From assembly GCA_964187785.1 (NCBI GenBank), contig OZ076409.1, forward strand, positions 39,682,001 through 39,742,000: a DNA stretch of 60,000 nucleotides. Direction: 5' to 3'. Position 1 is the first letter of the stretch. Every line of letters begins with the position of its first letter. This DNA comes from Amphiscolops sp. MND2022 (Eukaryota). The notes beneath the pieces were generated by a model. It did no database searches. It saw only the letters and a program-made list of their open reading frames with translations, and was not told the origin of the DNA. Below are positions 3,991 to 39,699 of this stretch, one piece after another. Both the position numbers and the translations under genes were made by a program.

Positions 3991-5056
3991 TATAAATAGA
4001 ATTTGACACAAAAGGAAGGCAGGTGAGGATTGCAGGGTTATAAGATTTAATCGATGCTTGCAATAAAGTCAGCCAACGCGTTTATAACATGCTTGTTTTC
4101 GCAATTCAGCAAACAAACTAGCGTTTCGTCAATGTTTTGATTTTGAAGCTCCTTAATGAAACTCCTTCGGTTCTTGGTATGAGACACAGGAAAATCAGAA
4201 ATGTGCAGTATCATCGACAACTCTACAATAGGGACAAATATCGGTTTTGCTCTTTTTACTTCTGAATAATACTTCGCGTACTTCAAAATCATTCACTAGA
4301 ACACGTAGCGTTTTGACAGAAACTTTCTTAGGATATGGTGCAAGCATTTTCATGATGCTGTTTCTTACTTTAAGCCCTGAGTAATTTGAGTACATTAGAG
4401 CTTGCTTTATTTCTCGTTGCCATAAGTGCCTGCAATACTCATCCATCTCCTTCTTAAAAGTATTGACTGAGGATTGTCTAGCATATTGTATGTATATTGC
4501 CTTAATTTCATATTACGATTTACAATTGAAAGTTTGTGTACCAGAAAGAATCTCACCATATTAATATGCTGGGGTATGATTGCTAAATTACCTGGGTTTA
4601 GAATATCTGCAATTCTACCAGTTGAATGTAGAAACATTAATACTTGACTTGTGTAGAGTAGAGAAGGAGGCCAAATATTACTTAAAACACTGACTACGTG
4701 TTTCGATATTTGGTTTTTTTCCCAAAGATAGATTTATGAACACTCCACCGCATTCTGTCCAGAGATGTCATATTTTGATGAAACCATATAGTCATACAGT
4801 ACGTTACACGTGGTTTCACATATGAATCAAAGATACGTACAGCGTAAATGGATTTAATCCTTGCGTTATAAGTATACTAGTTTCCTTCCAGAAATTAACC
4901 ACTGAGGCAGAGATAATGGCAGCATGTGTTTTGAAACTCAAATCTCGCTCAAACAATTGTCCCAGCATTTTACTTCTCTCAACAATCTTATAGTCGGACT
5001 GAAATGAAATTTGTATGTTCAGTTTTGTCTTTATTCAGCACCTGCCCCTCATTTGC
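3991..5056 (-). mobile_element. Second, truncated copy of the 3' part of the same LINE
   Basis: High similarity to 668-745 + 1574-2590; the translated ORFs are near-identical. Confidence 0.85.
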
Positions 5057-5063
5057 ATTAATT

Positions 5064-9050: not shown

Positions 9051-9550
9051 CATTATTTTTCATCATAACTCAACCTCGAAACTTAACCAATTTGCAGGAA
9101 TACCACATTTGGGTGTGTGCCAGTTTCCCCAAAAAAACAATCACAACAACAGTGAAGCAATCTGTGAATGAAAAAAACCATGAAGCGTATGCTTTGCAAT
9201 AGTGCAGTAGACAAAACCATTTTCTGGAAAACAATGTGCTCGCGGACGAACAAGGTTCCAGAAGAAAACGAAACATTGTCAGACCGTTATACAGGCTACA
9301 TCTCAACCAAGAACTCTAGAATTACGAAAACACCAACTGCGAAATTGATCTAGAAAAGTCCCTCGACAGTGTGTGGATTGATGGCTTACTATTTGAACTT
9401 AGACATTATCAGGTGAATGGCAAAATGTACTTCATCATACGAACCTTTCTGCAGAACAGAGAGGCGATCATTGAGTTATCTGTCTATCTTTCACCTGCCT
9501 TTAAGATAGACATTGGTGTCCCTCAAGGTAGTGTCCTGCCACCACTACTA
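9051..9550 (+). mobile_element. LINE RT fragment
   Basis: DLEKSLDSVWIDGLL and GVPQGSVLPPLL motifs. Confidence 0.7.
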
Positions 9551-9569
9551 GTTGTTGTGATAAACTTGC

Positions 9570-12500: not shown

Positions 12501-12588
12501 CCAGAACTGTACAACGAGAAGACGAGAAGTTGATAAAAACGGAAGTATTACGGATTTAGGGCTCGTTGTAAATAACAATTTGAGATGG
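9570..12588 (+). mobile_element. Degenerate CR1/L2-group LINE: PHD-finger ORF1, APE endonuclease, RT; runs into the assembly gap
   Basis: ORF1 CEKC...VQCSKCVNWFHLACS...WVCESC; ILTETWL endonuclease motif; PPWIT; VIPVFKKG, QYGFRTG, DFQKALD and IPQGSFLG RT motifs; many stops. Confidence 0.85.
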
Positions 12589-12788
12589 NNNNNNNNNNNN
12601 NNNNNNNNNNNNNNNNNNNNNNNNNNNNNNNNNNNNNNNNNNNNNNNNNNNNNNNNNNNNNNNNNNNNNNNNNNNNNNNNNNNNNNNNNNNNNNNNNNNN
12701 NNNNNNNNNNNNNNNNNNNNNNNNNNNNNNNNNNNNNNNNNNNNNNNNNNNNNNNNNNNNNNNNNNNNNNNNNNNNNNNNNNNNNNNN
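12589..12788. other. Assembly gap (200 N)
   Basis: Run of N; the flanks are not necessarily contiguous in the genome. Confidence 0.99.
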
Positions 12789-13143
12789 CGAGGAACCTAT
12801 TTTTTACCATTGAACTTGTGACGTTTGTAAAATTTGAAGTACGTTTTCTTTTACCGCTAATGATCAAGGGGCTTCCGATGAATTTTTTGGTGTGAATTGT
12901 ATTGGAAAATTTATTCCATTCAAATTTTGATTTATGATTACATAGTAATTGAATTCTTCAAACCAAACCTAATTTTTGCGTTACGAAATCTACTTTGGAA
13001 TGGTTTAAAATTAGGTTCAAGCTTTCGTCAGGATTTTAAAATCAAAATTGTTCCAGTGGAAACTTAGTAACAACATTTTAAACTATCACGTACACTAAAA
13101 CCAATGCCACAAAAGTCTAAAAATTTGTCATTCCCTTTCAACG

Positions 13144-15858
13144 TCAATTTTCTTCGTCTGAGTCATCTCCACGATTGTCACTGTTTTCTTTTCTTGGGTC
13201 TTGACTACCGCTGCATCGGCTGCTGGTGTTTCCGGAGCTGCTCCCCGACTGGGTCTCACTGAATTCAGAGCGGGCTACCGGATCTTCATAGTCGAACATT
13301 AACTGCTCGAAGGGATGAATTGTTTTACTTGCTCGGAGGACAACATAACGTTGATTGTTGTCGGCAAATACAATGACATCAGTGGACTTCATATTGGCTT
13401 CTAAAACTGAGTGATTGGCAAGGCGACCCATACATCTACTATCAGGGTGGACAGGACACGTTTCCGCGGAGGCATTGATTATCCTTCGGCCGGGTCCTTT
13501 GACTTCAAGACAAAACTCCCGTTTAACACCTTCAATGGCGGATACTTCGTCCATTGATGTCTTGAGGAAAACCTGCCCGTGGTAATCAATGACGACTTCA
13601 TTTTTCTGGAAAACTCGGGTGGCAACGATTCCTCGTCCAAACTTGCTAAATGAAACTTGCGTGACTCCGGGCCATTTTTGAGATCGACATCTCTCCATAA
13701 GCAAAGTTTGATCTTCAAACTCCATATTGCTTGCCAATCCTTTGTAATAAATCTTCTGAATTGCCTTGTTCGTTTCTACTTTTGGGGTAATAAATATTGG
13801 GAGCACAAGTAGATAAACTTTTCTCAGGTCTTGGTTGCAGTCATTCTGCATCGTCCACTTCTGTCGCTGGAAATAGCTCTTCAGTCTCATTTCCAACGAA
13901 GCAAGGTCAGTTTTTCCATTCATATGCTTGAAAAAAGCATGGGCACGAGCTGATTGGCGGGCATATCTCTGTCGCTCCTGGTGCCTTCTCACCGCCGACT
14001 GCACGACCTGGTAGTCCAAGGCAATGTCCAGAGTCTGCCAAATTGCTCTAGTTTGGACCTTCAACTTAGGGAGTACTGCTTCAGTGTCGTTTGCGATGGG
14101 CAACACAACATGAAGGTGCCGTTCCAATTCCCACAGCGGGCTAGCACAGTGTTTCAGTACCTGTTTAAAACGATACCAACATTGAATTGTGTCTAAATGC
14201 ATTCTGAATTAATGATATCAACAGTGTACGTGTCACAGATAGATCGACCCCTGATTGGTACCAAAAACTAGCAAAACTAGCTCTACAATATAAATTGTCC
14301 CAGTTTCCACGGATTTTCAGTATAATTTGACTTGCTCAAAGAAAGCAATGCGGAAAGCAAGACCATATCTTTAAACACATGGCGTGGAAACCAGATACAA
14401 ATCTTAATACATTGCGAACTTTCACTCAAAGGGGTGTACACATTATTGCGCGTTACCATGAATGTCCTAGATTCCACGGTTTTAAGTTTGAATTGACTTA
14501 CTCAAAGAATGCATTGCGGAAAACAAGACCATATCTTTAAACACATGGCGTGGAAACCAAATACAAATCTTAATACATTGCGAACTTTCACTCAAAGGGG
14601 TATACACATTATTGTGCGTTACCATAAATGTCCTAGTTTGCACGGTTATTGAGTATAAAACGGCTCGCTTTTAAAAGTCTTCGAGAAAAAAAGACCATAT
14701 CTTTGAACACATGGTGAAAATCGAATACAAATCCTAACTCATAGTTCTATTCAAAGGGGTGTGATGATGATTTGTTTATACATACCGACTCCATATATTG
14801 GTCAACAACGTGGCTAGGTCGGAAGTTGGATTTCCCAGCTGAATTCACAAAAAACAATTCGGTGTACAGGATCCGATTGTCTGTCTCACTCAGCAGTCTT
14901 TCGAAAGGAGTCCCCTCACCGTGGTCCAGAAACTCGCTTCGAACACTCACGAAGTAGTCCACAAAGCCTTCCAATAACCATCGTGGGATATTGTAGCACG
15001 TTTTTCTGGCGCACCTCTCCGCTACATCTATCTCAAGCACGGAAGAGGCATTTTGGTCGTCTGATTCTTTCATCTTAACTGCTGCCTGCGCCACGGCGTG
15101 GACAGTCACATTGCTGACCTCCCGATCCAGAAAACCCAAGAATATTAAAACGTAAGCCATTAGACTTCGAAAGAACTCTATTTGGACCTTTTTCGTAGCC
15201 AGAATTCTCTTACTGCAACGCGATACATTCTCTGTTATTGTCCATTTAATGAAAGACTCCACTGTATCGGTTTTGTAATCAGGCTTCTTCTTCTTGGCGG
15301 GAACAGTCTAAAAAATGGAGAGTTTTCAAAAAGTGTCTTTATTGTATTTAAAACTGATAACGCATCCTCCAGGAATTAAAAAGTAAATTGGTTTCTATGA
15401 AACGTAACCCTTAATTGGAACGCAAAATTTGAACAATATGTATTCAGAAGTTTTACTATACTTACCATATCAACTGGTGGGGGCATTGGACGTTTGTTTG
15501 CTACATTATCGGAGCTTGGATGTCCATTGGACGGTTTTGGAGGAATTATGATCTCAGCTGGTAATTCGCTCTGATTGTTTAAAAGCTCGTTTATGACCTC
15601 TTCAGCTTCAGTCGGGAGATGTTCCGTTATTATTCCATCCTCATTGAAGCTGAATTCAGGTGGCTCTTGGAGGCGGAACGGAGTGCTGTTGAGTGGCCCG
15701 CCGGGTGTTTGGCTAAACATCACGGGCGATACCAGGGGCGTGAACAAACCAGAAGGAGTTTGCATTTGGGTTAATGTCAGAGGCGTAGACATGTCCGCGG
15801 AAGACGGTGTTGGAATTGGGGGCATCGACAAAGGCAGCGAGGTTTTATTTTGTTCCAT
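13144..15858 (-). CDS. Spliced ~643-aa protein: Pro/Ser-rich N-terminus + tyrosine-recombinase-like domain + SETD8/PR-Set7-like SET methyltransferase
   Basis: Phase-0 exons 15858-15466 (ATG|gtaagt), 15307-14786 (tttag|ACT, TCG|gtatgt), 14160-13144 (aaacag|GTA). SET motifs GRGIVATRVF, VIDYHG, GRLANHS, EQLMFDY. YR-like segments RSLMAYVLIFLGFLDREVSNVTV, LLEGFVDYFVSVR, LFFVNSAGK, TRAIWQT and RHQERQRY. Confidence 0.8.
14290..14760 (+). repeat. 166-bp repeat array 1 (~2.5-3 units) in intron 2 of the SET gene
   Basis: gacttgctcaaaga.. recurs at 14329 and 14495; same unit at 18950, 22980 and 25390. Confidence 0.9.
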
Positions 15859-16156
15859 TTAGGAAAGTTAGATTTTCTATTTTGACGGTCTGATTTTCAG
15901 AGACGATTTCAAGATAATGATTGTAGATTTCGAATATTTGTTTATATGAATTACGATAATATCTGATATTTAGTAATTAGTAGTGCCATATCCGGCTGTG
16001 CGACCGAAAACCTCAATCTTAAATGAGGCATGTAAAAAGCGTTATTTCGGAATGAGTCTAGTGTCTTCATTTCCAATTATTCCTAATAGTGCACCTGCTT
16101 CGTAATTAGGTGACGATTAGCTGTAATTAATTTGGGATGCAACCAATCTCGTTAGC

Positions 16157-16476
16157 GTCTTCTTTAACGCTCATCCCATCAACATTCATCACATAAAAAG
16201 TCTACATATTCTATTAGTTTCGAGCTTTAAAATAAAGTCTTCTTTAACGCTCATCCCATCAACATTCACCACATAAGGGGTTTACACATTCTATTAGTTT
16301 CGAGCTTTAAAATAAAGTCTTCTTTAACGCTCATCCCATCAATATTCACCACATAAGGGGTCTACATGTTTTATTAGTTTCGAGCTTTCAAATAAAGTCT
16401 TCTTTAACGCTCATCCCATCAACATTCACCACATAAGGTGTCTACACATTCTATTAGTTTCGAGCTTTAAAATAAA
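16157..16476 (+). repeat. 4 x 80-bp tandem repeat ending at the start codon (copy 1)
   Basis: gtcttctttaacgctcatccc... at 16157, 16237, 16317 and 16397; ATG at 16478. Confidence 0.95.
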
Positions 16477-16477
16477 A

Positions 16478-16849
16478 ATGCTTCTCCAAACCTTCTATGA
16501 AAATGAAGTTGTGCAAATCTTGGATCCTGCGACATCAATTTGGGAATCAGCGAAAATAATTTCCTTTGTGAGCGATTGGTGTGTAAGAATTAAATGGGTC
16601 GATTGGTCTTACAATAAAAAAGAAGATATCACTGTTCCCGAAGTATACAGACCTGACAAAAATTACTGGAATATTAGAAAATCCCACAATCTTGTCCGCG
16701 AAGAAACTGTGAGCAACAAAAGACGGTCAACACCTCTTAGCTACAACGCTCGTCGACTGGTCAGAAACGATCAAATTTACTTTTGGCAACCACAATGTAA
16801 CTGTGTAGATAGGAATGAGGCTAGTGTCTTCATTTCCAATTATTCCTAA
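16478..16849 (+). pseudogene. Truncated duplicate of the Tudor-like gene (N-terminal domain only, 123 aa)
   Basis: Near-identical to the first ~110 aa of the 17241 ORF, then reads into the duplicated promoter and stops. Confidence 0.75.
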
Positions 16850-16919
16850 TAGTGCACCTGCTTCGTAATTAGGTGACGATTAGCTGTAATTAATTTGGGA
16901 TGCAACCAATCTCGTTAGC

Positions 16920-17239
16920 GTCTTCTTTAACGCTCATCCCATCAACATTCATCACATAAAAGGTCTACATATTCTATTAGTTTCGAGCTTTAAAATAAAG
17001 TCTTCTTTAACGCTCATCCCATCAACATTCACCACATAGGGGGTTTACACATTCTATTAGTTTCGAGCTTTAAAATAAAGTCTTCTTTAACGCTCATCCC
17101 ATCAATATTCACCACATAAGGGGTCTACATGTTTTATTTGTTTCGAGTTTTCAAATAAAGTCTTCTTTAACGCTCATCCCATCAACATTCACCACATAAG
17201 GTGTCTACACATTCTATTAGTTTCGAGCTTTAAAATAAA
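16920..17239 (+). repeat. 4 x 80-bp tandem repeat (copy 2)
   Basis: Same units as 16157-16476, shifted by 763 bp. Confidence 0.95.
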
Positions 17240-17240
17240 A

Positions 17241-18679
17241 ATGCTTCTCCAAACCTTCTATGAAAATGAAGTTGTGCAAATCTTGGATCCTGCGACATCA
17301 ATTTGGGAATCAGCGAAAATAATTTCCTTTGTGAGCGATTGGTGTGTAAGAATTAAATGGGTCGATTGGTCTTACAATAAAAAAGAAGATATCACTGTTC
17401 CCGAAGTATACAGACCTGACAAAAATTACTGGAATATTAGAAAATCCCACAATCTTGTCCGCGAAGAAACTGTGAGCAACAAAAGACGGTCAACACCTCT
17501 TAGCTACAACGCTCGTCGACTGGTCAGAAACGATCAAATTTACTTTTGGCAACCAGAATGTAACTGTGTAGATAGCGAAAGATGCCAAGAGGACCGTTGC
17601 TGCGGGTCAGTTGTGATGGGTTGGGTAAAAATTAATGACCCTTTCTGTCAACAATGTTTGATAACCGACGTCGAGGACAATGATGAGTATGTTTCGTATC
17701 GCCAACTAAGAAATAAACCTTGTGTAAGAGACACTGAACCAGAAATTGATGAAACTGAACAAGATCATGAATCAGGATCTGACGTACATCGCCCATTCGT
17801 CAAAAAGCAAGCCCGTGTGACAAGCGCCACCCAACCGATGCCACAAGTCGACATTCTTTCCTTGCTTCCCAGTGTTGACGATGACGTTGAATTAACATAT
17901 GCACCCTGTGAAAATGATATCATAAAGGTAATGTTTTCTTGCTTTTTTGCTTACAAACTTTGCTTTTGAATTTTGATAACCCTGGATTGGCACCAAATTT
18001 TTCAAAGTATTTTTCCCACCAAATATTTGTTCAATCTTTTTATTTTCAGGTGGGATCTATTGCATCTTACGCAAATGATGATTTTGAAATCAAGAAGATT
18101 TACTATGATCATCAGAAGAGAAAAGCATGTGCATTCATGCAGAGCAGAAGTGACCCTGACATTGAAGTGCGCATCCCGACAATTCGTGTTGTCACAACAA
18201 CATCTTCTAAAGGCGATGTAATGGATTTTAATTCGCTTCTGGAGCCCATGGACCAAGCCTATGCTTTGTTTTCTGCAATAAAACGAATGGTGGGACTCTC
18301 AAGAAAGAAGCATTCCTTAACCGCAACATTAGTTCCCTGTACCCCACTGACAAAAAAACTCTGTGGCTTCGAAACTGGCAATCTCAAAGAGGCCGTTAAG
18401 TATAGTGTTGCAAACCAAGAGGGACATAAATGGTGCAACGGTACATGGGATACTGTACTTGGAAGAAATTGGGATATGATCCCATGTCACGCAAGCGATG
18501 GAGAAGATGTTCTTATAAAGACAATGAGGTTCATTGAACATCGAGAATTTGGCATGTTCACGATTCGTGTCCAGTTTTTGTCAAGCCAAGGCCACTACAA
18601 AAACAGCCAATATAGAGATCTGTTCGAAATGTACCTGTCTCAGATGCATGAAATACTCTTAAATACTCCTAAATTTTAA
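17241..18679 (+). CDS. Spliced ~438-aa protein with an N-terminal Tudor/chromo-barrel-like domain and an unknown C-terminal domain
   Basis: Exons 17241-17927 (AAG|gtaatg) and 18050-18679 (ttttcag|GTG), phase 0. FYENEVVQILDPATSIWESAKIISFVSDWCVRIKWVDW has the spacing and aromatic residues of Royal-family barrels; Cys-rich middle region. Confidence 0.7.
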
Positions 18680-18949
18680 AAAAACTTTCTATTCGTGTTT
18701 GATCATTTTTTGTTTCTTCAACAATTTATCTTTCATCATTATTAGTAATTATTACAATATAAGCTCCATGACCTTGTATTCTTGAAAATTCTTGAGAAAA
18801 GTCTTAGACTATCGAATTACTTTATTCTGAAATGTAATGCACTTGTCACATATAGATCAACCCCTGATTGGTACCAAAAATGATACAATCTCAACAATTT
18901 CCGGGATTTTATTTGCATGTTTTCCAACTTTTTTCAGGATATTTGATTT

Positions 18950-19365
18950 GCACCAAAAAGCAATGCGGAAAACAAGGACACATCCTAAAAAACATGGCAT
19001 GAAATCAAAACACAAATCGTAATGCATTGCTCAATTCTGTTCGTCTCGGTTTCCACGGATTTTCAGTAAAATTTGACTTGCTCGAAGAATGCAATGCGGA
19101 AGTCAAGACCATATCTTTAAACACATGCCGTGGAAACCAAATACAAACCTTAATACATTGCGAACTTTCACTCAAAGGGGTATGTATGTATGCAGACACC
19201 GGATTGCGCATTACCATAAATGTCCTGGTTTCCACGGTATTTAAGTGAAAATTGACTTGCTCAAAGAAAGCAATGCGGAAAACAAGGACATATCTTTAAA
19301 CGCATGGCGTGGAAACCAAACACAAGTCCTAATACGTTGCTCAATTTCATTCGAAGGGGCGTAGT
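18950..19365 (+). repeat. 166-bp repeat array 2 (diverged), between the Tudor-like gene and the transposase
   Basis: caatgcggaaaacaaggac...gtggaaacc...cattgcgaactttcactcaaagggg units. Confidence 0.85.
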
Positions 19366-19762
19366 CATGGTTTTCAGAAAATAATCAAACAATTTTTGTT
19401 TTTCTTTTTTTATTACCTTTTGAGTATTTCCAATCAGATAACGCTTTACCAAGATGAAACAAACAGTCCTGAGAAGTGAAAACTTCTAATTACGAGTGAT
19501 AAGACTTAATGGAAGACTCTTTTGCATCTGATTGTGATTATTGACAAAATGGCCTTGGGTGATATGGACTCAAATTATTAAAGTATAATTGAACCGTAAT
19601 TCATCAGTTTAATGAAGAGACTCAAAACCGGACTCATTTCACTTGTGGGTTTGTGTATCTAATTGCATTTCATTTTATTGTATGGTGAGGGTTGCAGTCT
19701 GACAAATGTTCTACAATCTATACAATTTCACTTTGCAATAAACCTAAAAACCAGCTTTAGAA

Positions 19763-22700
19763 ATGACTCCACTGTCAATGTGGGAAAGAAATATTATCGA
19801 AGCGGAAAATGGGAAATTCTTCGCTAACTGTCGACTTTTTGACGATATATCCGGAAAAGAAATACCGAATAAGTTTCGGAAGTTCGAGACACTTGTTGGG
19901 GAAATGTTGACTGGGACAAATTTAAATTCAAAAGAATTCATTCGAAGAATTGCTGTTAAAGGCCAGAAAACCCCCCCTGTATTTGTAGCAGCAAAATTGG
20001 CAAAACTACTTGTACTGCGTGGATTTAAAGACTTCCCTTGGAACTCAGCCAGAAGAGAGTTTGTCAGTTTGTTTTTCAATAATGATGTCATACCATATAA
20101 CAATCCTTACATGAAAGACACCCTTGTGACACCTGCAGATGCGACTCCTGAAGATTCGGCCCCTGAAGGTCAAGTCAGTGACAATTCTCTCTCAAAAGAA
20201 AGAAAGCTAGAAATATCAGACGCCAAAAAAGTCAAACATGAACAAACTGATCCAATTAGAACAGATCTGATGTCAGAAGTTGGGTTCAACAGTTTCATGA
20301 AAAAAATCAAAAGCTCTGCAAATAAGAGAAAAGATCAACGATTCACAAAAAAGAGGACCCAAACTTAGTCAAAAAAATTGTAGAAGATCTTTTCGAAAAA
20401 AGAGGATCTACTGATGAGTTCAGGCACCATTTATCTCTTGTCACGAAAACGGGTAACACGGAAGATGTTATAAAAGTTATTCGAACAAGACTTTCAATTG
20501 TTGGACTCGGATACAATTTAGTCCCATGCATTCGATTGGTCAAGAAGTCAACATCCGAAATTCAGTCCTACTTTACAGCAATGTGTGAGCCAGAAAGAAC
20601 CTTTTCTGGTTTTCGCTGCAACCTGATAAAATGCGTGGAGACGGTGTCATACTTCTTGTTTGGAACGAAAGAACTCAATGGCCAACGAGTTGATATCTGG
20701 GGAGATGGTTGTGAAATTGGAGGTGTCGAAACAACACGAATTGCATTCCGGATCCTTACTGACAAAATGAAGTGTCAATCATCCGATGCAGTATTCTGTT
20801 TTGCTGCATACAGGGGTAAAGATAGTAGATTCGCAATGGAGCAAAACCTTGGGCCAACTATAGCTGGAGTTCAAGAGTCTGGTTGGCTTTTTATGAAGAC
20901 CCTGGAACTATCAAAACGCGGAGTTAATTTAACATACAGTGGCGATTCGCCGTTTTTAATGAGATTGGTGCTCGGAATCACAAATGAATCAGCTAGCCCA
21001 TCGAAAATGCCACTCTATATAACAGAACTTGATTACACACCAACAAAATGTCATCATGAAACTGGTCTACGATCTGATGTTATTATACCCTTCAGAACGG
21101 ATCTTCCAAAATCTTCCTTGGTCTTCTACGAAAATATACAATCAGTTTGTCCTGATGCCACGCATATGACCACCCGTTGTGTTGAAAATGACCTCCAAAG
21201 AATTGCACAGAAAATTATCAGAGAAAAGCATCCTAATCATGATGTAGCAATTCGCCAGCTTGAAGAAAACTTGACAAGAAGAGATGCGAGACCATACTTT
21301 CAGTTCAACATATCTCATAGAAGTGGTTCGTGTATCGGTACTGTAGGTGCAGTATCCCTCTCAGGTGGTAGTGCTCTAGCGGTCATTGCTGATAAAGAGG
21401 AGCTTGCAGGTGCAAAAGACGGTAAAATTAGCGATCTTTACCATGGTGTTTGGGGTCCCGAAGATATCATTGTTGGCAGTGAAGAAAACGCAAATGTCCC
21501 TTGCGTTAACATCCTAAGAAACTGGTTTCCTAAACTTTTCAATAAAAATAACCCCAAGCAAAAAGAGTCCAATGACAAATTCATATCTGCTTTTGATGCT
21601 TGCGAACTCCTGCGATCGTGTTTAAACCAATGTGTTTTATGTCTGCGAGCAGAAGAATTCAACAGTGAAACGTTCAAAAAATGGGCTGAAGTTTATTACC
21701 AAACCAATATCTTGATATTCGGGCATGCCGGTTTGACACCTTATAAATTGAAAATGCTGATGTTTCCTCAACTTGTTGAGAGTGGATATATAAAGATATA
21801 AGACCATTTGATCATTTGTGTGAAGGTCTTGAAAAATCGAACCACCAAGCTAATCGTGGCTTTCAGACAAAGACAATGCGCGGAGAAGGTAAGATCTATC
21901 ACAAGGATCCACTATTCCTCGAGTCGTCCTTTTCTTTCTTGAAATTTTTAAGATTCGCAGTTGAAGTTGAAGACAAAGGCTCGGACGCTGAACCAACTTC
22001 TAAGATTATCATGGAACCTGAACAAGACGCAACAACAGAGGTCTACTTTGATGACCATAATATGACTGGAAACAGAAAGATCTATCAGACAGTTTCGAAC
22101 AGTACCACAAACAGCGTAATGAGTATACTTCATAGTGCAACAAAAGTGATGGGCATTGACGTTCCGGGACCTGAGTACCTTGATATTTGCCGCATAGAAC
22201 CACCGTTAACAACTATCGCCATTGGATGTCAAGAAAATCCTTTAAGTGGATTAAGATTTTGTCTGCTTGGTCGCTTGGGTACTTGGAAAAAACATACTCT
22301 AACACATGACATGGTGAAACAATTGATCATCAATATGGGAGGAACTGTTCTAGAAAATGAACGAGCTGACGTGTTGATGAGCACCCATTCACAGCTCCCC
22401 AATTGTTTTGTTCTCGTCAAGGACGAAAAAGACTTAATCTTAGGTACCGGTTCCACAGAGGAAATTAATGACATGAAGAAATCAAGGAAAAGAGGGTCAT
22501 CAGTAACACGGGAGGGTGGAAATGAACCATCACAATATTCCAAAATAGCAAAACGATTCGCAGCTGGGGGTTTCAAATTCTTGAATATCGAATTTTTATC
22601 TGAAGTTGACGAGAAAAAAATGCTGATTGACCCGGAGCCATACATTCTTCAGCCCGGATCCAAACTTGTTGAAAATCGTGTCAACGACAAAGACCTTTGT

Positions 22701-22841
22701 TCTTGGACCAATGCAGTGGAAAAACACTGGGTGAAGGTGTATCTGCGATTGTCGCTCTCAAGAGATACCGTGATGGCACTTTTAAACAACTTTCGTTTTG
22801 ATTTACTGTTCTCTTCTAATTCATATGTTACCCGAACTTGA
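19763..22841 (+). CDS. RAG1/Transib-like DDE transposase with C-terminal BRCT domain (~1000 aa; frameshifted in this assembly)
   Basis: Ordered RAG1-core-like motifs: IWGDG (D1), QSSDAVFCFAAYRGKDS, SGDSPFLMRLVLG (D2), CPDATH, LTPYKLK, CEGLEKSNH (E). BRCT-like PLSGLRFCLLG...VKQLIINMGGTV. Frames join at the A6 run 20347-20352 and at ~21795-21800; possible third shift at 22689-22691. Confidence 0.75.
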
Positions 22842-22979
22842 AACTATTCAATAAATTCTTCAAAAATAAGTATTTTCATTAGGTTTATTAAGATGCTCCT
22901 ACGAAACTAGTTTTACATATCATAGATTGGTGCCAAAAAGCACACAATATTGGGCTCCGTTTCGGCAAACTTTCGTTTG

Positions 22980-23365
22980 TCTTGGTTTCCACAAATTGAA
23001 TGCGCATTACCACAAATGTCCTAGTTTCCACGGTTTCAAGTTTGAATTGACTTACTCAAAGAATGCAATGCGGAAAACAAGACCATATCTTTAAACACAT
23101 GGCGTGGAAACCAAATACAAATCTTAATACATTGCGAACTTTCACTCAAAGGGGTATACACATCATTGCGCGTTACCATGAATGTCCTAGTTTCCACAGT
23201 TTTAAGTTTGAATTGACTTACTCAAAGAATGCAATGCGGAAAACAAGACCATATCTTTAAACACACGGCGTGGAAACCAAATACAAATCTTAATACATTG
23301 CGAACTTTCTTTCAAAGGGGTATACACATTATTGCGCGTTACCATAAATGTCCTGGTTTCCATTG
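22980..23365 (+). repeat. 166-bp repeat array 3, between the convergent transposase and JmjC genes
   Basis: Two near-complete units starting ~23049 and ~23215. Confidence 0.9.
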
Positions 23366-23617
23366 AGTTTTTACCTAGCGGAAATTCACTGTTGAGGTAT
23401 ACTCCTGATTTTTCTCCTATTATTCTTGCATAATCTTGGAAATTATTGCATTAGACGTCCAAACGTTTCAAAGCATGTTTTGAATAATTGAGAATTTTTC
23501 AATTCGTTTTCCAATTAAACTTCTTGCGCTCGTCACTGAATAAAACAGATTGTAAGGTATTTGGCAGTTTTGTCATTTATTTGTATGATACTGAAAATCT
23601 AAATCTGAATCTACAGT

Positions 23618-26600
23618 TTAATCTAAATCTAAAATATCTAGTTCAAGGGGGATTGAGCGGATTCCCGTAATGGCAGCAACAAGAGGACAGCGTTTTGGGT
23701 GCAAAGATGGATCTACCATCTTTGCCGGCAAGAGAGTTCTTCCCTTGCCTTTAACATGGGTAACCATCATTGCAGGTTTTGACTCGAGTTCTAGTAGATC
23801 CGTTGTCGTCATTACTTCCTCGTAGCTTTTCGTGTAGGGGTCAACAGCGATGGGCACATGCTCTGGAACAGTAAGAGCCTTACTGGGGTCAGTATTCTTC
23901 TCGGGATGCTCTCTCAAATAACTGCGGCTGCTGCTTGGTGGCTCACGCAGTGTCACTGAAGCTCTTTTTTGGCCCAGTACGATGTGAAGTCTTTCAGGAC
24001 TGAAATCGGGTAGCACCTGTAAAACGTAAAAATCAAACTTTAAACCTGGAGAGCAAACTTTCAATTGAAAAATCCGAAATATTTTTGGTATAGTTCTTGT
24101 TTATTGACTTAGAAGCACAAAATTTCACTCAGTTGTGTTTTACTTGCATGTATATCAGTCAGACATGAATGTAGAGGATGATCAATTGAAAAAAGCAAGA
24201 CTTGTTCATAAACATAAGTTTTTGAATTAGAAAATGACCCTCGATTGGAACCAAAATGGAAATGATTGAAAATGGAAAATTGAAGTTTTGTGACCAAACA
24301 AGAGTGAAGGCTTAACAATCTTACTTCACGGGCGGCGTGTTCATTGTATAGTGATTGCACTGTGCTGTACATCGACACCAGGCGTCGACAGAGTCGAGGG
24401 CACAGCTTTTCGGCAATACGGTACATCAGAAGTACCAACATCTCTGGAAGATCAGGGAACTTGTCATCGGATCTTCTCGGGAACTCGACGATGATTGAGT
24501 GTCTTATCATGGGCAGGTGCCCGAACGCCAGGAAGTTCGTTCCCAACGAAATGGCATTGCCTTTCGTAAGTACAAAGTGGAGGAAATTTGCGGGCATGAC
24601 TAGAACATCTCCAGCTGTGACATGCAACCGCAAACATCCCTCTTCCAGCTGGTCGATGTTCCCGAAGAATGTTGGCCTGAAAATAAAAGTACATCGAAGT
24701 TGCTTTTCTAATTTTTTGACATCAATAGAAGTAAACTAGAAAAAAGTTTAAATATTTGAAAAGAGACGTTAAATGCTTGCTTGTTGTTTTCCATCACCAA
24801 AAAATGTTAGTCAAAAAGTATAATTGTTTGTTTTTGAAAATAGAACAGTGTTCTTGAAGACAATAAAGTTGGTGTATTAGTTAAGTTTTGTTACTTACGT
24901 AGTGTCGTTCTCAGCATTCGACCATCTTTCAAAATTACTGAGGTTTTTCTTCGACGGTTTCACCAAGAAGAAAATCTTCTCTCCAGTTAGAACTGTGTAA
25001 AACACAGACGTCGAAGAATAATCCTGATGCCACGTCGTGTGCGCAGAATCTTGAGTGACCAGGACATAATAGGGAGTAGAACAAGAGTAATGCTCGGTTC
25101 TCGACTTCCCGATCTCCCTGTCGGCCAAATGGTTGATGGAGTTGTCAGCCACCATCTTGGGTACTGAGTATATGGCCTTGGGGAGTGTCCTGACATCGAT
25201 GACGTTTAGAGGGTAATACCGACTGCCTGGATGACAGTTGGCCAGCTCCACGAAAAACTCGTCATACGCGTGTCTGCAAAAAAACATCTATTAAATGATG
25301 CTAGGCAAGGTTCTAATTCATGTTATCAACAGTATACTTGTCACAGGTAGATCGGACCTGGATTGGTACCAAAACGAACTCGACATAACTGTCCCAGTTT
25401 CCACGGATTTTCAGTATAATTTGACTTGCTCAAAGAAAGCATTGCGGAAAGCAAGACCATATCTTTAAACACATGGCGTGGAAACCACATACAAATCCTA
25501 ATACATTGCGAACTTTCACTCAAAGGGGTATACACATTATTGCGCGTTACCATGAATGTCCTAGATTCCACGGTTTTAAGTTTGAATTGACTTACTCAAA
25601 GAATGCAATGCGGAAAACAAGACCATATCTTTAAACACATGGCGTGGAAACCAAATACAAATCTTAATACATTGCGAACTTTCACTCAAAGGGGTATACA
25701 CATCATTGCGCGTTACCAGGAATGTCCTAGTTTCCACGGTTTTAAGTTTGAATTGACTTACTCAAAGAATGCAATGCGGAAAACAAGACCATATCTTTAA
25801 ACACACGGCGTGGAAACCAGATACAAATCCTAATACATTGCAGAACCTCACTTGAAGGGGTATACCCATGGTTTGTGTTTTGGAACAACTAAATTCGGTT
25901 TTACTAAATGCTAAACATGGTTCAAACGAGTAAAAAGTGTTTTTTACCTCTCCGATTCTGGCTGACTTGACTTCAATTGGAGCATCAGGTTCAGCAAGGT
26001 TGACCGGTCGCAGAAGCCGTTTGATCTCCGCGACAAAGCCTTTTTTTCGCGGAGAATTTTGGGATTTTCAGTCCTGTGCAATGCTTGGCTCCATTTCTCC
26101 AAATCAAGGGGACACCATGTCGAAGAAAGTGACCAAGGTGTTCGGTTTGATTGTCATGGGGACCCTGCCACTCAGCGTAGGAAAATTGACATTCCAGAGG
26201 CACGTTTTCGCAAAATGCGAAGTGCTCTTGGGTGCCAAATGGGGCCGCTGGAGTCCCAGAATTGAATGTCAAATCAAGTGGCATCGGTGGTTGGGCAATT
26301 TGACATTTGACTGATCTCGCAATGTGGTTCCTTAGGCTGTAGCCGTACCCGAATGAGGTCCCACACGAAATGCAGAAATGACGGCTTCTTTTTTTTCCTC
26401 TCGCAGCTTCTGTAATTTCAAAGACAATTTATCAAATGAATGTCCAAAATTTTTTCTCATGAATTTCATTCATGGTATGACCCATGATTGGAACCAAAAA
26501 TCTTCCAAGATTTCATGAATGCTTTCATAGTATGACCCATGATTGGAACCAAAAATCTTCCAAAGATTTTATGAATGCTTTCATGGTATGACCCATGATT

Positions 26601-28030
26601 GGAACCAAAATCCTTCCCGAAAATTTGTGTTTTTAGACCTTCCCTTTCACATCAGAAAAACATTGCCCTTCTTTTTCTATTGCATACGGTAATCGGTTCA
26701 AGACCGTAAAATATTTCAAAACAAGAAAAAAAATTCTGGAAACAATCTTAACACTAACGGTATTGGTACATCCTGACTTCTTCTCCAGCAGCAATCTTTT
26801 CTTGTTGCTTCGTGCAATATTTGGCTCTTCTTTGATGGCGCTCTTTACTTTTTTTGGTCGTGAAAATCTGACCACATTTCTCGCACGTCAAATTCTGGGC
26901 AACTTGTTCCTGCTTGCTGACACTTTTGCATCCGGGAAGATGACGGGTTAAGTGCCATTTTCTTCCAGCAACGTAGTCGCAATTCGAACACGGGAAACCT
27001 AAACATAGCCTTTTGAATTATACGAGATGAAGAAGTCAAATAAAAAACCAACCTATACATACAATATACATACCAAAATCAGATTGTTTTCCACGAGTTA
27101 CAAAAATGATAGGTTTCATTTAGATTGCTCGAAACTTTGAAAAATGGTAGACATGATATATTGATCCACGTGATGTTTGATTTGTCAAACTATTTATCAT
27201 TTCAATTTCAATATCAAAAAATGGAGATTGTCGCTTGTCAATTGGAATTGTCAAAACGAGTACAAGAACGAGTAAATGGAAGTCTTACGTTTTTTAGGTG
27301 GCGGAGTTGTATCTCGAAATTCGTCACAGAGTTGTCGTTTTCGGTTTTCTGGCAAACCAGGGCAAGTGCGGGCATGAACAGCAAGGGCTTCTCGAGTGGG
27401 GGCATAATGGTCGCAAGCACCGATTGTGCAGAGATGACCTGAGTAATGAAACAACGATGAAAATATATACAAAAAATGTGAATATATTCAAAAATTATTT
27501 TTTGAACACCGCTGTTCATACAGCCTCAAAATTTCAATACAAATAAATCCAAATAAAGTAAAGAAACGTTCATCAAAACTTCAAACATTTTTCATCTTCG
27601 CAGTTGAATTTACCCGTTTCAGCAGTTTGATAGTTTTTGACCTTTTTCACTGATAGTCAAGAAAAAGTAACGCAGGAATTAACGACTTACCAAGGAACAG
27701 TTCTGATGATGAGTCAGATGAGTCCATGCGGGATCTAAAGTTCTGCGAAGTGCTGGGTCCGCTGGGTCCGGGGGCTTGCTCAGAAGTACTTTGCTCAGAA
27801 GCAGCTGTTTTCTTCGATTTCGGCTGTAACAACTTGAAAATGTGAATAAAAGGTCCAAAATATCAAGTGCAAATAACATGAAATTTAAATTAGTTCAAAT
27901 AACGAAGACAAAATTGTTTACGAGAAAGTTTGGATCTTTCCGTCTCATCCCCCCATCGATTTAAGTCCCCCAGTTATTATTAAATAAAAGTTTTATAAAT
28001 TACCTTTAAAAAAATATTAAAGTATCTCAT
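23618..28030 (-). CDS. Spliced ~716-aa protein: four C2HC zinc fingers + KDM2/KDM7-type JmjC histone demethylase domain
   Basis: Phase-compatible GT-AG exons: 28030-28004 (tentative), 27823-27691, 27438-27289, 26998-26759, 26409-25948 (one extra base in T7 run 26041-26047), 25287-24899, 24676-24325, 24016-23618. JmjC motifs TTWHQDYSSTSVFYTVLTGEKIFFLV and AGDVLVMPANFLHFVLT..SLGTNFL with intact H-x-D...H. Fingers CTIGAC..HARTC, CSNC..HLPGC, CEKC..HQRRAKYC, CISC..HIARSVKC. Confidence 0.85.
25390..25870 (+). repeat. 166-bp repeat array 4 (~3 units) in a JmjC gene intron
   Basis: Unit starts at 25423, 25589 and 25755 (exact 166-bp period). Confidence 0.92.
26465..26620 (+). repeat. 3 x ~55-bp tandem repeat in a JmjC gene intron
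   Basis: tcatggtatgacccatgattggaaccaaaa-type units with GATTGG at 26486, 26541 and 26597. Confidence 0.9.
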
Positions 28031-28394
28031 TAAACATACAATTTTTTTGGAAAAGAATCTGCGTAAAACAATTTGAAAGTTATCAGGACACTGTTTGAAA
28101 AACTGCCCTAAACTTTGAACCAGAATCTGCTTCTCAATTGTAAAATCAATTACAGTAGGGGGCTTTTATAACGACCCAAAGGGGCAGTTGATTTTAAACT
28201 GATAATTTCCTGATAAAATCCAAAAACAGTTTCTTGGAATTTGGGATTAAAATTGAAACAAGTAGAAGCCAAGACGCAATGAATAGCTAACTTTAATTTC
28301 GACGCTCTGAATACTTTTGTTTATTCCAATCTTGGAACCAATCTTTGAAAAAAATCCATAAGCAAAATCAATACAAAGACACTTTAGTGAATTC

Positions 28395-28556
28395 CCAAAT
28401 AACATAAGAGCAAATATCATAAAACGAAATTAGTTTCAAATGACAAAAATGAAATGAGTTTGACATTATAAAATAAAATTGTTTACGAGAAAGTTTCATT
28501 TTCATGTTATTTGAACCTAATTTTGTTTTTATGCTATTTGCTCTTATGTTATTTGG
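28395..28556. repeat. ~160-bp imperfect palindrome (foldback/MITE-like)
   Basis: ccaaataacataagagcaaata...aaatgaaa pairs with tttcattttc...tatttgctcttatgttatttgg; partial relative at ~27856-27930. Confidence 0.8.
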
Positions 28557-28822
28557 TACCTAATCGACAATTTTTCAACCAAAAATTTATTTCCGAAAAC
28601 GAAAAAATCAATTTACCATTATGATTGGCTTCGGGTTATATCCGTTGATTGGCTGAGGGTAGTATCGGCTGCTGGATGTCTGCAAAACTTTGAGTTGTTG
28701 AGAGAATCAAAGAGAGATTCAATGGGAGATTCTGGCTTGTTAATCAGTTAACAGTCCGAACGGTGAGAAAACAAGTTTGACAATGAAAACTGCCGGTCAG
28801 TTAGCAATCGGTCAGTTGCTGT

Positions 28823-28988
28823 GATACGCGCCGCTGATACGAGCCGCTGATTAGCCAATAGGAATCACCCACAGTTGGAACAGTCATCAGTTTGGTACGA
28901 GTTGCTGATACGCGCCGCTGATTAGCAAGGAAATTACTCACGATTGTAACAGTAATGATTTTGATACGAGCCGCTGATACGCGACGCT
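28823..28988 (+). repeat. Five copies of a GC-rich 13-mer gatacg(c/a)g(c/a)cgct
   Basis: Copies at 28823, 28836, 28907, 28963 and 28976. Confidence 0.85.
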
Positions 28989-29854
28989 GGTGAGCTTTCA
29001 AGCGATGACCGATAAGGCAATAACAATCATATCTGTTCTAATATTGTTGACAAGCAATAAGTTTAAAAGCAAATAGAAAGCAGTTTCTCGATGACCGTGT
29101 AAATTCGAGAATGTTCTAGAAAATATTCGAAAAAAAATATTCGAATACGAAAAATCTTAATCTTTTGCTGTTTATTCTTCGCCTCGAATCTTGATAAAAT
29201 TCAGTACGAATTTGGCCTCTAAACCTGAAGCATAATACATCATTGGTTGCTTTCATTTTCACGCCCGAAACGATCAATAGAAACCGAAAATCTATAGTTA
29301 ACGATTTCAAATATCGTTCAAATAGATATCATTTTGATTAATTTTGCTCAGATTCGACCCATGATTGGAACCAAAATCTCCCCATTTCTCCACTCTAATT
29401 ATTCAAATAAATTTTTCATTTTCCAGTATAATTTATTTCAGTATAAATGTAGTATTTCACTCTTGTGTATCACTATAGTATAAAAATATTCCAGTATAGT
29501 ATAGTGAACATTATAGTTAAGTATAGTACAAGTAACCTGAATCTTTTCAATTGCATTCTAATTGACTATTTTAATCAAATTTTTATTTTTATTTATCTAA
29601 GCAGCTTTACGATTCGACCCACGATTGGAACCAAAATCCCCCGAATTCCACGAAGATTTTAAAATTTCATTAAAATAATTTATTCCAGTTGGTATAAATG
29701 TATTTCACTTTTGTATATCACTATGTACAATCAGTATAAGTATTTTGCACTTTGGTAAAGTGTTGAAAGAAATTTTCCTTTTTCGTTTTTTTTAAAATTC
29801 ATTTTCAAATTTCATTTTTTCAAATTCAAATGCAGTCTGTATAATTGTAGTACG

Positions 29855-29881
29855 ATAGTATAGTAGTATAGTATAGTATAG
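29855..29881 (+). repeat. (tagta)n microsatellite
   Basis: atagtatagtagtatagtatagtatag. Confidence 0.7.
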
Positions 29882-30270
29882 ATGAAAGGAAGAGAAGCCG
29901 ACAGTTTTACGGAAAGAGAGACATTGATTTTCACTTGTTTGTGGAAATTGACTTTGTATTTACTCTCCGGCTTATTAAATTTGATTTCAGCTAATTAAAA
30001 TGTAAGTGGAAAGTAAGACGCTGAAATTTGCAGCCATCTGATTGGTTGTAATGCACTTTGTGGAATCCAAGACACGAATTTGGCGGCATCTTGTCGGCAT
30101 TTGTCGGCATATTTTTGGTCCCAGTTTCCGCAAAATGAAACCGGCTAACGTATTAACCCATGCCCTCGGATTCCGAAAAACACCGATTTTCGTGGCGTGG
30201 ATTCCGCAAAATCAGTGCTAAATTGCCAATTTTGCACGCTTTAAGACATGTCTGCGGAATCGGAGGGCCT

Positions 30271-33200
30271 ACACGCACAGAAATGTGTCTGTAGCGATTT
30301 AGCTTGCAGATGCACAGTAATGCGAGGTCTTGGAATGGACAGAACAAAGACTGTCACAGATGTTGGCAGTCAAAGAGCAACAGCACAACCAGAAGTGAAA
30401 TTCGCCTCATCGAAGCCGTCGATCACTCTCAGTGCAGACGCGAATCGGTTACCGCCTGCGTTTGGAGGAATGCAGAGTGGTGCATTGCAAGTACCACAAC
30501 TTGCGAACACACAAAAACAGTATTTGCCCAGTCAAGGACCAAACTTTTCCTCAAATGCAAAAGATGACTACTACATCAGATCTAGCTTGCCAAAACTGAA
30601 GTTGGCAGATTTCTCAGGTGACCCAATGGAGTGGCCAGAGTGGTCACAACTATTCCAAGCAACCGTCCATGCAGCGAACATTGACGACAGTGTAAAAATG
30701 AATCACCTGAAAACAATGGTCACGGGCAAGGCGAAAGAGGCTATTGCTGGTCTAGGGTACACTGCTGAGATGTACAATCTGGCGTGGAAAGTTCTAGTTC
30801 GATACTTTGGAAAACCTCAAATGGTTGTGAACGTCCAGTTGAAGCGAATCTATTCCTTCCCTCCGATGAAACCTTACGATGGAACCACATTGATCAAGTT
30901 TGCGAGAATAGTGTCGAGTTGCGTGAAAGTTTTGACACAATTCAACTACGTGGGAGACCTAAACTTAAAAGGAGTTCTGGGCAGTGCCACAAGGAAGTTA
31001 ACACTGGACATGAAAACGAAGTGGCTCACTTATGTCAAGCAAATGAACCTGTATCAACCGGGACTCGCTGTGTTCAGTGAATGGCTAAATGATATAGCGG
31101 ATATTCAGGATGAATTGCTTTTGTATTCGAATCCAAAAGCTGATCGCGCGAAGACGAGCTACAAGGAAAAGGCCGAAGGCTCTACGTTTGCAACATCAGC
31201 AACAAACAGGGCAAATGACAACTCGAAAAACCAGAGAGAGTGTGTGTTGAAAGACGGCAAACACCCAATTTGGAAATGCGAAAAGTTCAAAAAAATGAAC
31301 GTCGAAGAAAGAGGACAAAAGGCGAAAGAACTGAAGTCGTGCTTCAAATGCTTGTCAGATGCACATCAGATGAGAACTTGCTCTGGTAGACTCTGTGACG
31401 TCAATGGTTGTGGAAAACCCCATCACAGATTGCTACACAGACCTTACAACGTGGAACAAAAGAAAAGCGTTGAAAATGTCGACGAGGTTTCAAACCTGTC
31501 CTCAATGAGAAGCAGTGGCGTGCTTCCCGTCATTCCAGTAACGATAGGGAGTGGGCGCAAAACTCTGAAAACGTTCGCTTTGTGCGACTCAGGAGCAAGC
31601 CTGTCCTTTGTGGACGAGAGCCTGATGATAACGCTAAATCTGATGGGACAGCCAGTGGATATGAACGTTGCAGGGATTCATGAAACGTCAGATATTAGTA
31701 GTAAACGACTTCGAGTCAAGATTGGAGATCACGACGGAAAGGTCAAAGAAGATAATATGGCATATAGTCATCCCAACGTGATTGCAGGAAATCGAACGTA
31801 CAACTTCAAGAAATTGAAAAGAAACATATCCTCACCTGTCAGTTTTGAAAGACTCAACCATCAACCTGAAAGATGTCAAAGTCATCTTAGGCCAAGATTG
31901 TTATCATCTGCATAGAGCAACTGACTATAGAAAGTGTGGAAACGCAAAGCCGTGGGCAGTGCGAACCAAGCTGGGATGGATGCTCAGTGGACCCTTGCCT
32001 CAACAAGAAAGTGCGAAACTCGCAACTGAAAAGTTGTTCGCAGCAGAACTGGACTCATTAGCGGGGCAAATGGAAACCCAGTAGACCATGGGATTGTATG
32101 CCCTGAACTGCAGTGTATCCGGGAGGTTGGAGGCAAATAAGAAGAGCTCACGGGACATTTTCGTAGTAGAACGCAACTGGCAGGAAGTCAACACTAAAAC
32201 CCTCCTCGTAGAAATCAAGCAAGTCTGGCAAGAAGAAATGCAACTTGTTGCAAGTGATCATAATATTGTCAAACAAGAAAAGAACAAGGAGTTTTCACTT
32301 ACAGAAGAAAAGAACGAACATGAACGTGTCGCAATTACATCAAACTTTCGAACCTCGGAAAAATTTTGTGTAACGCTTGACTTGCTGAAATAGAGTATAG
32401 GTGTCGCATCTGTAAAACAGCTTGTCAAAGAAAAGTATTCAACGCAATTGCAAGCAACGAATGTTACTGTCAACACTCTAACACTTTAAGAAGTAAAAAG
32501 GTGTTCTCAATTGGAGAGAGATATTGAATTCGTGAATAAGAGCCAAATTGAACTTCATGAAGTCCCAAGAGGCAAAGCGATAAATCGAAGACCCTTTGGT
32601 GGTTTGTTGAAGCCAGACCAACCGACTGAAGAAAACGCGAGTAATGAAAGAAAAGCCTTAAATGTGTCACTTGGGAGAAAACATGACGTTGGCTTGAATG
32701 AAAAACTGCTGGACAAAATCATTCCAAACGACAGGGTAAATTGTAACAATTGGTTAGGTAATGGAAATTCGGGAATGGATGCAGTGGCACAAGCTAATGC
32801 GTATACCCAACTGAGAAATAGCCATCCCAAGCAATTCGAGAAACGAGCTTGGAAATTTGAACATAGCTCACACCTATTAGATGAAATGGACGAAGGGGAT
32901 CCGCTGAATCAAGATGGCATACTAGAAGCAAAAAATTCGACAGATGAATTTGCAGGCGAAATATCACTGATGGAAACGCCAATGGGTTCTTCAAAAGCCC
33001 GAACAACAACAGGCTGTAAAATTGGACCTTGCATAGGGCCGGCTGTATCATGGGAAGAAATGATGTTGCAACTTCAATTCTTTGGAAAATGCAATTAAGA
33101 GGAAATTAGACAACTTGAAGTCAATGATTTGGTTTGGATAGTGGATGAGAATGTGAAAAGAGCGCACTACAAGATGAGTAGAGTGTTGGAAGTCTATCAT

Positions 33201-39220: not shown

Positions 39221-39239
39221 AATCGTTGCTCTACACAGG

Positions 39240-39660: not shown

Positions 39661-39699
39661 AAAACATTTTCTTCAACTTACCCAACAATAAAAACGGAT

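Follow-up and report, generated by a model that had tools for sequence, protein, structure and literature searches.

Transposon-encoded, sequence-specific anti-silencing is established in plants. The motifs bound by VANC proteins build up in the introns and spacers of Arabidopsis VANDAL elements through tandem repeats, according to passages of PMC5735166, and how VANC-type proteins erase marks is left open in the passages available from the VANC papers (PMC5735166; PMC10398659). Here, we analyze a 60,000-nucleotide stretch from Amphiscolops sp. MND2022 (contig OZ076409.1, positions 39,682,001 to 39,742,000, forward strand; hereafter the window), which holds a block of four genes (gene 1 with a SET domain, gene 2, a transposase as gene 3, and gene 4 with zinc fingers and a JmjC domain) and, in the noncoding DNA of this block, 11 copies of a short motif. 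Judged from its sequence, the block is a multicopy four-gene DNA transposon of about 17 kb. Both the motif and the element are real features, and a function for the motif is plausible. Our favored reading, to which we give roughly even odds (a probability of about 0.5), is that the motif may be a VANC-like self-recognition tag that recruits a chromatin enzyme encoded by the element itself.

A 21-bp motif in the noncoding DNA of the block

Scanning both strands of the whole window for GATTGG-NN-CCAAA returned 11 matches, all on the + strand and all within 14253–29636, against 0.066 expected under the window's own dinucleotide model. The 11 GATTGG starts (14253 to 29623) had been listed in an earlier sequence-only reading of the window, and every coordinate proved exact. 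When motif density was compared across the window, 11 copies fell inside the block and none in the remaining ≈44 kb. Three lesser sites had escaped that reading: a partial, core-only copy on the opposite strand (28332–28343, −), a marginal + strand copy near 15413 in intron 1 of the SET gene (15406–15427; position weight matrix (PWM) score 18.2), and a + strand copy near 18945 that precedes a degenerate array (18938–18958; PWM score 12.9, not above background). The 11 copies themselves score from 22.8 to 34.9, and the best site outside the block scores 15.9.

Column analysis gives a 21-bp motif, (G)ACCC-NN-GATTGG-NN-CCAAA(A), in which the half-sites GATTGG and CCAAA are invariant (11/11) and variation is concentrated in the two 2-bp spacers. 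The motif is asymmetric, with ACCC upstream and AAA downstream of the core. A palindromic core had been claimed; three of the 11 cores are indeed perfect palindromes, but the center is NN and not WA, the dinucleotide being TA in three copies, AA in six, CA in one, and TG in one.

The minus strand of the motif reads CCAAT, which would suit recognition by a transcription or chromatin factor of the host, the element having gathered such sites in an enhancer-like or insulator-like role. Also in keeping with a host factor, the motif is common to two subfamilies that apparently reside in one assembly (linked via a third transposase cluster) and is absent from 14 of 14 distant metagenome loci (48 kb). 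The NF-Y consensus has two purines 5′ of CCAAT, however, and the NF-Y-type pattern fits none of the 11 copies, which leaves the CCAAT-box interpretation offered earlier weak; patterns for the endoplasmic reticulum stress response element and for NFI likewise match 0/11. The 14 NF-Y-type boxes present in the window lie elsewhere (e.g., at 28630 and 28654), the 44 kb of flanking host DNA, though mostly repeat debris, contains no copy, and a 17-base consensus is long for such a factor. We regard a host-factor site as quite unlikely.

All 11 copies lie outside the modeled exons, one copy stands 5′ of each 166-bp array, and introns of all three spliced genes hold copies (5 of 9 modeled introns, or 6 of 9 counting the weak copy), as the sequence-only reading had maintained. 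Copy 1 (14246–14266) is in intron 2 of the SET gene, 5′ of an array; copy 2 (17978–17998) is in the intron of gene 2; copy 3 (18859–18879) is in the spacer between gene 2 and the transposase; and copy 4 (22918–22938), with most of the ACCC missing, is in the spacer between the 3′ ends of the transposase and JmjC genes. The last JmjC intron contains copy 5 (24236–24256), which can be read as peptide in other copies of the element and in subfamily B, and JmjC intron 4 contains copy 6 (25354–25374), again 5′ of an array. Copies 7 to 9 (26486, 26541, and 26597) sit inside a 56-bp tandem repeat of 2.9 units in JmjC intron 3 (26457–26617). The right noncoding arm carries copy 10 (29356–29376) and copy 11 (29616–29636), a degenerate 260-bp duplicate of copy 10. 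Overall, the copies tile the element at gaps of at most 4.1 kb, or about every 1 to 4 kb; the motif is read in sense only in the gene 2 intron and in antisense in the other introns.

These copies form six flank classes and thus do not represent 11 independent events. Between classes (48 pairs), the identity of the 21-bp core is 0.82 and that of the 30-bp flanks 0.28 and 0.31, and within classes (7 pairs), the core is 93% identical and the flanks 63% and 36%; as the core was defined on the compared copies themselves, these values describe sharp edges and are no independent test. In a leave-one-class-out scan, 10 of the 11 copies outscore every site outside the block, the exception being the copy at 22925.

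The same picture could result from passive copying, in which template switching or gene conversion spreads a short sequence that persists, unbound, only in noncoding DNA. Five of the 11 copies derive from two local duplications, the class A copies (copies 1, 3, and 6) have their upstream flank in common, and three copies share a longer module. Four copies adjoin homogenized 166-bp arrays that carry a different motif, and such arrays were copied whole and recently between distant sites (97–99% identity between arrays, ≈85% within an array). Direct-orientation copying would account for the strand bias, and noncoding repeats are common in relatives of the element (L001, L003, L004, and L007). Conservation ends sharply at ≈21 bp in six contexts, however, with flanks at background; the half-sites are invariant, whereas the spacers vary; and the motif survives in an otherwise unalignable subfamily B intron. 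We consider a purely passive origin unlikely.

A splicing signal was rejected, as the distances to splice sites vary (46–580 and 58–232 nt) and sense and antisense copies are mixed, and so was a hairpin or other RNA element, with no Rfam match and 4 of 4 folded copies no better than shuffles (z from −0.07 to 1.11). The motif has sharp edges, its half-sites are invariant and its spacers free, its strand does not depend on that of transcription, it forms no hairpin, and its copies tile the element, all of which fits a putative double-stranded protein-binding site.

The block is a multicopy four-gene unit

The view that the four genes are one unit, which had been advanced from the distribution of the motif, is borne out by contig sharing: homologs of all four genes share contigs in a subfamily-matched manner, and gene 2 homologs adjoin the transposase in 3 of the 14 distant metagenome loci. 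Clusters at 90% identity comprise 128 members for the transposase (fragments included), 45 for the SET exon, 76 for the gene 2 exon, and 12 plus 20 for the JmjC exon. Co-occurrence was scored on the cluster members listed (at most 15 per cluster), with equal length taken as a strong but indirect sign of the same contig. Entries occurring on more than one contig were left out, as was the 157,041-bp contig bearing the window's own open reading frames (ORFs), and the clusters were split into subfamilies A and B by similarity to the window proteins after some overlaps had already been seen.

Scored in this way, the subfamily A transposase (14 contigs) shares at least two contigs with gene 2 (14), at least five with SET (32), and at least five with JmjC (25); gene 2 shares at least five with SET and at least five with JmjC, and SET and JmjC share at least nine. 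The subfamily B transposase (14 contigs) shares at least six with SET (30) and at least one with JmjC (13), and SET and JmjC share at least two. All 12 A-by-B comparisons gave no shared contig among the matches listed. In length, several of the shared contigs come close to the element itself (13,634, 14,243, 14,962, and 15,898 bp), and three of the genes occur together on one of 42,045 bp. No SET or JmjC homologs were seen in the 14 distant loci, whose contigs are short.

Further multicopy transposase subfamilies exist (P0011, P0043, P0005, P0008, and P0026, with 10–163 members); for those tabulated, almost no co-occurrence with the SET and JmjC clusters was found, and their cargo may differ or be too diverged. 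A viral or prokaryotic origin of the block was rejected, with no relative or motif in viral contigs or GTDB genomes.

A transposase with a RAG1 fold

Gene 3 (19763–22841, +) encodes a RAG1/Transib-fold DDE transposase with a BRCT-like tail (BRCT_2 matched in 11 of 86 members). In this copy, the gene is distributed over three reading frames; P0248 (939 aa) is almost uninterrupted. The transposase family numbers 273 representatives at E ≤ 0.001. The structure model of P0001 (predicted local distance difference test (pLDDT) score 84.8) matches RAG1 and HzTransib (Foldseek E = 3e-6), with Z = 19.8 and a root-mean-square deviation of 3.5 Å over 378 residues for RAG1 and Z = 17.9 for HzTransib, at about 11% identity to RAG1/Transib. 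The acidic triad of P0001 is predicted to be D199/D279/E571. The transposase core matched no Pfam family, and a profile search against PDB sequences gave nothing significant.

Members of the CMCT clade have C(2)C and H(3-4)H as conserved motifs in the stretch that separates the second D from the E, as given in passages of PMC12730594. Conserved counterparts are absent here: among 15 aligned rows, CxxC occurs in three and H(3-4)H in two, both unconserved, and D-x2-H is the only invariant element in that region of the alignment. As modeled, the transposase has a RAG1 fold and lacks the conserved CMCT motifs.

Repeat arrays, a second motif, and the extent of the element

Arrays of 166-bp units lie at 14290–14737, 23001–23362, and 25390–25869, with a degenerate array of the same type at 18957–19360, all on the + strand. 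The units of the array at 25390 are 97–99% identical to those at 14290 and 23001, a likeness that shows recent copying between distant noncoding sites. A second motif, GYGGAAWC, is present as an inverted pair in every 166-bp unit (14290–25869). At 30060–30261, five sites of the form GYGGAWWC and of mixed orientation make up a cluster (0.045 expected per 210 bp), the pattern having been widened from GYGGAAWC after the cluster had been seen. This cluster suggests a right end and is a candidate right subterminal region. Comparison of the right arm with the 166-bp unit was not significant (local score 39, shuffle maximum 55).

The 21-bp motif could itself be bound by the transposase, as an internal or subterminal site akin to a recombination signal sequence (RSS), for synapsis or autoregulation. 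The RAG1-fold enzyme, the A-rich 3′ end of the motif, and its two copies in the right arm are in line with this, and transposases can be sequence-specific activators of their own copies, as described in passages of bioRxiv 10.64898/2026.08.24.746577. The copies, however, are spread internally and all point the same way instead of forming inverted sets at two ends, and the upstream flanks shared by class A argue that they are not inserted termini. They do not match the RSS nonamer, and GYGGAWWC, as clustered at 30060–30261, is the better candidate for a transposase-binding or subterminal site. We judge a transposase site decidedly unlikely.

The motif had also been taken to mark the extent of the element, which does not hold. 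Gene 1 runs 1.1 kb to the left of the first copy (to 13144), and the GYGGAWWC cluster suggests a right end beyond 30260; the element thus extends past the motif on the left and probably does so on the right. The copies were rejected as element termini, given their shared upstream flanks and the lack of a terminal inverted repeat (TIR). The four genes occupy the stretch between an assembly gap of 200 N (12589–12788), in or beyond which the left end probably lies, and a BEL gag, to which similarity starts near 30515. No TIR was found between 12789–13143 and 29640–30520, a 5′-CA..TG-3′ TIR with a 2–5 bp target duplication being the class criterion and the left end being hidden by the N gap; two low-depth contig sets did not define the termini.

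Three further repeat features were observed within the block. The divergent promoter region contains a 763-bp tandem duplication with 80-bp arrays (16049–17574, +; 99% identical), which repeats an 80-bp array together with the beginning of gene 2 and may be a recent duplication or an assembly artifact. An imperfect inverted repeat of ≈160 bp (28395–28556), with a related copy at 27851–27931, lies upstream of the zinc finger–JmjC gene. Finally, NF-Y-type CCAAT boxes and 13/69-bp repeats at 28620–28995 mark a probable promoter, possibly of an unrecognized 5′ exon.

The window as a whole is repeat-rich eukaryotic DNA with spliceosomal introns and LINE-like and BEL/Pao debris. Decayed BEL/Pao retroelements lie at 30245–33100, 42300–47100, and 48965–53563. 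To the left of the N gap, LINE-like debris includes a PHD-finger ORF (9532–10176) and a broken reverse transcriptase (11469–12533). A separate repeat family, whose copies are both direct and inverted and which has no relation to the block, occupies 38–2528, 3668–5887, and 39239–39661.

Cargo genes

Gene 1 (13144–15858, −) has three exons, two GT–AG introns, and no internal stop in the model. Its 643-aa product comprises a proline-rich N terminus, a middle region, and a C-terminal SET domain closest to SETD8 (Pfam E = 1.5e-10; PDB E = 2e-5). The middle region resembles two integrase-like ESM Atlas clusters, one at 0.91, in which 13% of members have PF00589, and the other at 0.88, which we treat as a lead only; it has no Pfam, PHROG, or PDB match, and its single-sequence structure model (pLDDT 38.7) scores too low for use. 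The middle exon (14786–15307) also matches unnamed animal protein clusters (ESM Atlas 0.92–0.96; mollusc, arthropod, and chordate records).

Were this region a tyrosine recombinase-like domain, the motif could be its recombination site, and the direct orientation and partial dyad symmetry of the copies would agree with the integrase-like clusters. Recombination between direct intronic sites would delete exons, however, the dyad center spans 2 bp instead of the usual 6–8 bp, and the catalytic motifs look degenerate by eye. A recombination site is, in our estimation, very unlikely.

Gene 2 (17241–18679, +) has two exons, one GT..AG intron, and no internal stop in the model and encodes 438 aa; its N terminus is Tudor-like at 0.81, below the reliable score and a lead only. 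Gene 4 (23618–27740, −) has about seven exons, with a frame break in exon 4 of this copy and approximate junctions around exons 3 and 4; the last three exons splice GT..AG without an internal stop. By eye, four C2H2/C2HC-type fingers can be made out, one exon matches Pfam zf-C2H2 (E = 1.5e-6), and the upstream exons scanned gave zf-C2H2 and no PHD match. The JmjC domain finds its best PDB matches in PHF8/KDM7 (E = 6e-11) and keeps the metal ligands, H-x-D and a distal H.

The motif in other copies and in distant relatives

Where a gene call continues into the last JmjC intron, the motif appears in translation. Among 53 proteins tallied, 37 read at least 30 residues into the intron, one of them the window's own. 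Sixteen of 35 other A-type copies have the full motif peptide, 12 have the core with a changed ACCC part, and seven have an altered core. In subfamily B, P0234, which shares 60% identity with the window ORF, extends across the homologous intron and there yields FGSNHG and LGSNCG. FGSNHG corresponds to the minus-strand frame of the motif, and the rest of the tail aligns poorly with the window intron; a motif-frame peptide of any kind arose in 9 of 60,000 simulated tails. The 16 other diverged-subfamily proteins stop at most 12 residues past the splice donor, and four window ORFs, checked for translation into further copies of the motif, added no strong site.

Among the distant loci, L004 (transposase 34% identical) has a dispersed module of its own (1–740, 2923–3123, and 6700–6920), with a submotif that occurs 14 times on the + strand and 0 times on the − strand. 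This module lies in the transposase intron, which is interrupted by an integrase-bearing insert, and in the downstream spacer. Other repeats are found in noncoding DNA that interrupts or flanks the transposase in L001, L003, and L007, and no recurring 10-mer was found in L002, L010, and L013. L007 also contains a PLAC8-domain ORF (5889–6887; E = 1.3e-11) downstream of the transposase relative, which may be cargo or a host gene.

A possible self-recognition tag

On the favored reading, a DNA-binding protein encoded by the element would bind the motif, most plausibly the zinc finger–JmjC protein and less likely the gene 1 product, and would remove repressive histone methylation locally. Copies of the family would thereby stay transcribed and mobile, and host genes would be spared. 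New motif sites would arise by direct-orientation copying between the noncoding segments of the element, which we propose as the reason for the common strand of the copies, and selection would keep them only where no exon is broken. For the enzyme itself, KDM7A substrates are H3K9me1/2 and H3K27me1/2, according to PMC10558696. With a CpG observed/expected ratio of 0.90, global CpG methylation is unlikely to be the basis of silencing here.

The confinement of the motif to the block, the conservation of its core between six contexts, and its retention in the subfamily B intron of P0234 speak for a self-recognition tag, as does the different but likewise one-stranded noncoding repeat of L004. Several observations weigh against it. 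Four widely spaced fingers and a semipalindromic core do not single out the reader, and the identification of the zinc finger–JmjC protein in that role is a tentative one that we consider doubtful. The motif seems to be common to subfamilies A and B, whereas VANC21 and VANC6 differ in their targets. Only 3 of the 11 copies lie within a tandem unit, the main 166-bp arrays hold another motif, and the divergent promoter region (16049–17574) has no copy. The same orientation over six classes amounts to p of about 0.03 only. The core peptide is altered in 7 of 35 near-identical young A copies, so no special constraint is visible, and conservation across subfamilies comes from one informative protein at the peptide level (n = 1). 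The SETD8 mark is often repressive, and with a SETD8-like SET domain, the kit need not be purely anti-silencing.

With this element, both a candidate enzyme and a candidate site can be named, and dozens of copies exist in nature, from two subfamilies at least, which makes the question directly testable. If the self-recognition reading is true, the element would provide a histone demethylase that is naturally guided by sequence, as well as a new branch among RAG1-like transposases. Should the motif be no more than a relic of copying, the four-gene element is still of interest, with the motif reduced to a marker.

Comparison with known systems

KDM7/PHF8 (JHDM1D) provides the best PDB matches of both JmjC exons and the same H-x-D...H ligands. 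KDM7/PHF8 demethylases act on H3K9, H3K27, and H4K20, and KDM7 carries an N-terminal PHD finger; the protein described here has C2H2/C2HC-type fingers instead, is multicopy and transposon-borne, and has a predicted demethylase activity. The transposase is alike in fold to Transib, RAG1, and ProtoRAG (PMC4411706; PDB 6xny, 6pqx, and 6b40). Known Transibs encode one protein, in the passages of PMC4411706; the present element has four genes, 17 kb, a BRCT-like tail, and no conserved C(2)C/H(3-4)H.

Cut-and-paste elements with chromatin-modifying cargo are described in passages of PMC12730594, namely fungal TET/JBP elements (Plavaka, ESTA, and EnSpm) and oomycete HarbingerS and MuDR with SET, and ESTA is also RAG1-like. 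Those elements differ in enzymes and hosts; the passages describe no cognate cis motif, and 'JmjC' has no occurrence in the main text as available. A term search of PMC6431247 found no mention of JmjC, Transib, or Chapaev, and no description of a Transib-like or giant animal transposon with JmjC or SET cargo was found in the open-access literature searched (Repbase Reports, subscription journals, and supplements being outside its scope).

Spm/TnpA and AtMu1, as presented in passages of bioRxiv 10.64898/2026.08.24.746577, resemble our element in having an element-encoded protein and clustered family-specific motifs, although binding in our case is hypothetical, and Spm belongs to the same broad CMCT structural group. 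TnpA motifs are dense and terminal, whereas the 21-bp motif tiles the interior.

A close parallel is Arabidopsis VANDAL/VANC (passages of PMC5735166 and PMC10398659): a multigene DNA transposon with a short motif in introns, spacers, and terminal noncoding DNA, tandem repeats that evolve in concert in VANDAL and may do so here, and a proposed self-specific loss of silent chromatin. VANDAL is a plant Mutator-type element, whereas the fold of the present transposase is that of RAG1. DNA methylation is what VANC, a DUF1985/DUF287 protein, affects; here, the candidate effector is a predicted zinc finger histone demethylase, and neither DUF1985 nor DUF287 had a Pfam match in the block ORFs scanned. 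VANC motifs are 9 bp and lie inside repeats, whereas ours is 21 bp, lies mostly beside arrays, and is a site of putative binding. By hypothesis, the element may work like VANC or TnpA, but it is a member of neither. It is possible, though we hold it only tentatively, that it represents a RAG1-fold animal transposon lineage lacking the zinc site and equipped with a self-targeted chromatin kit: a zinc finger–guided KDM7-type eraser, a SET writer, a Tudor reader, and a family-specific DNA address in introns and spacers. If so, plant VANC would have in that kit a counterpart from animals whose targeting protein is at once the enzyme, with address and reader diverging between hosts, as the different repeat of L004 would suggest.

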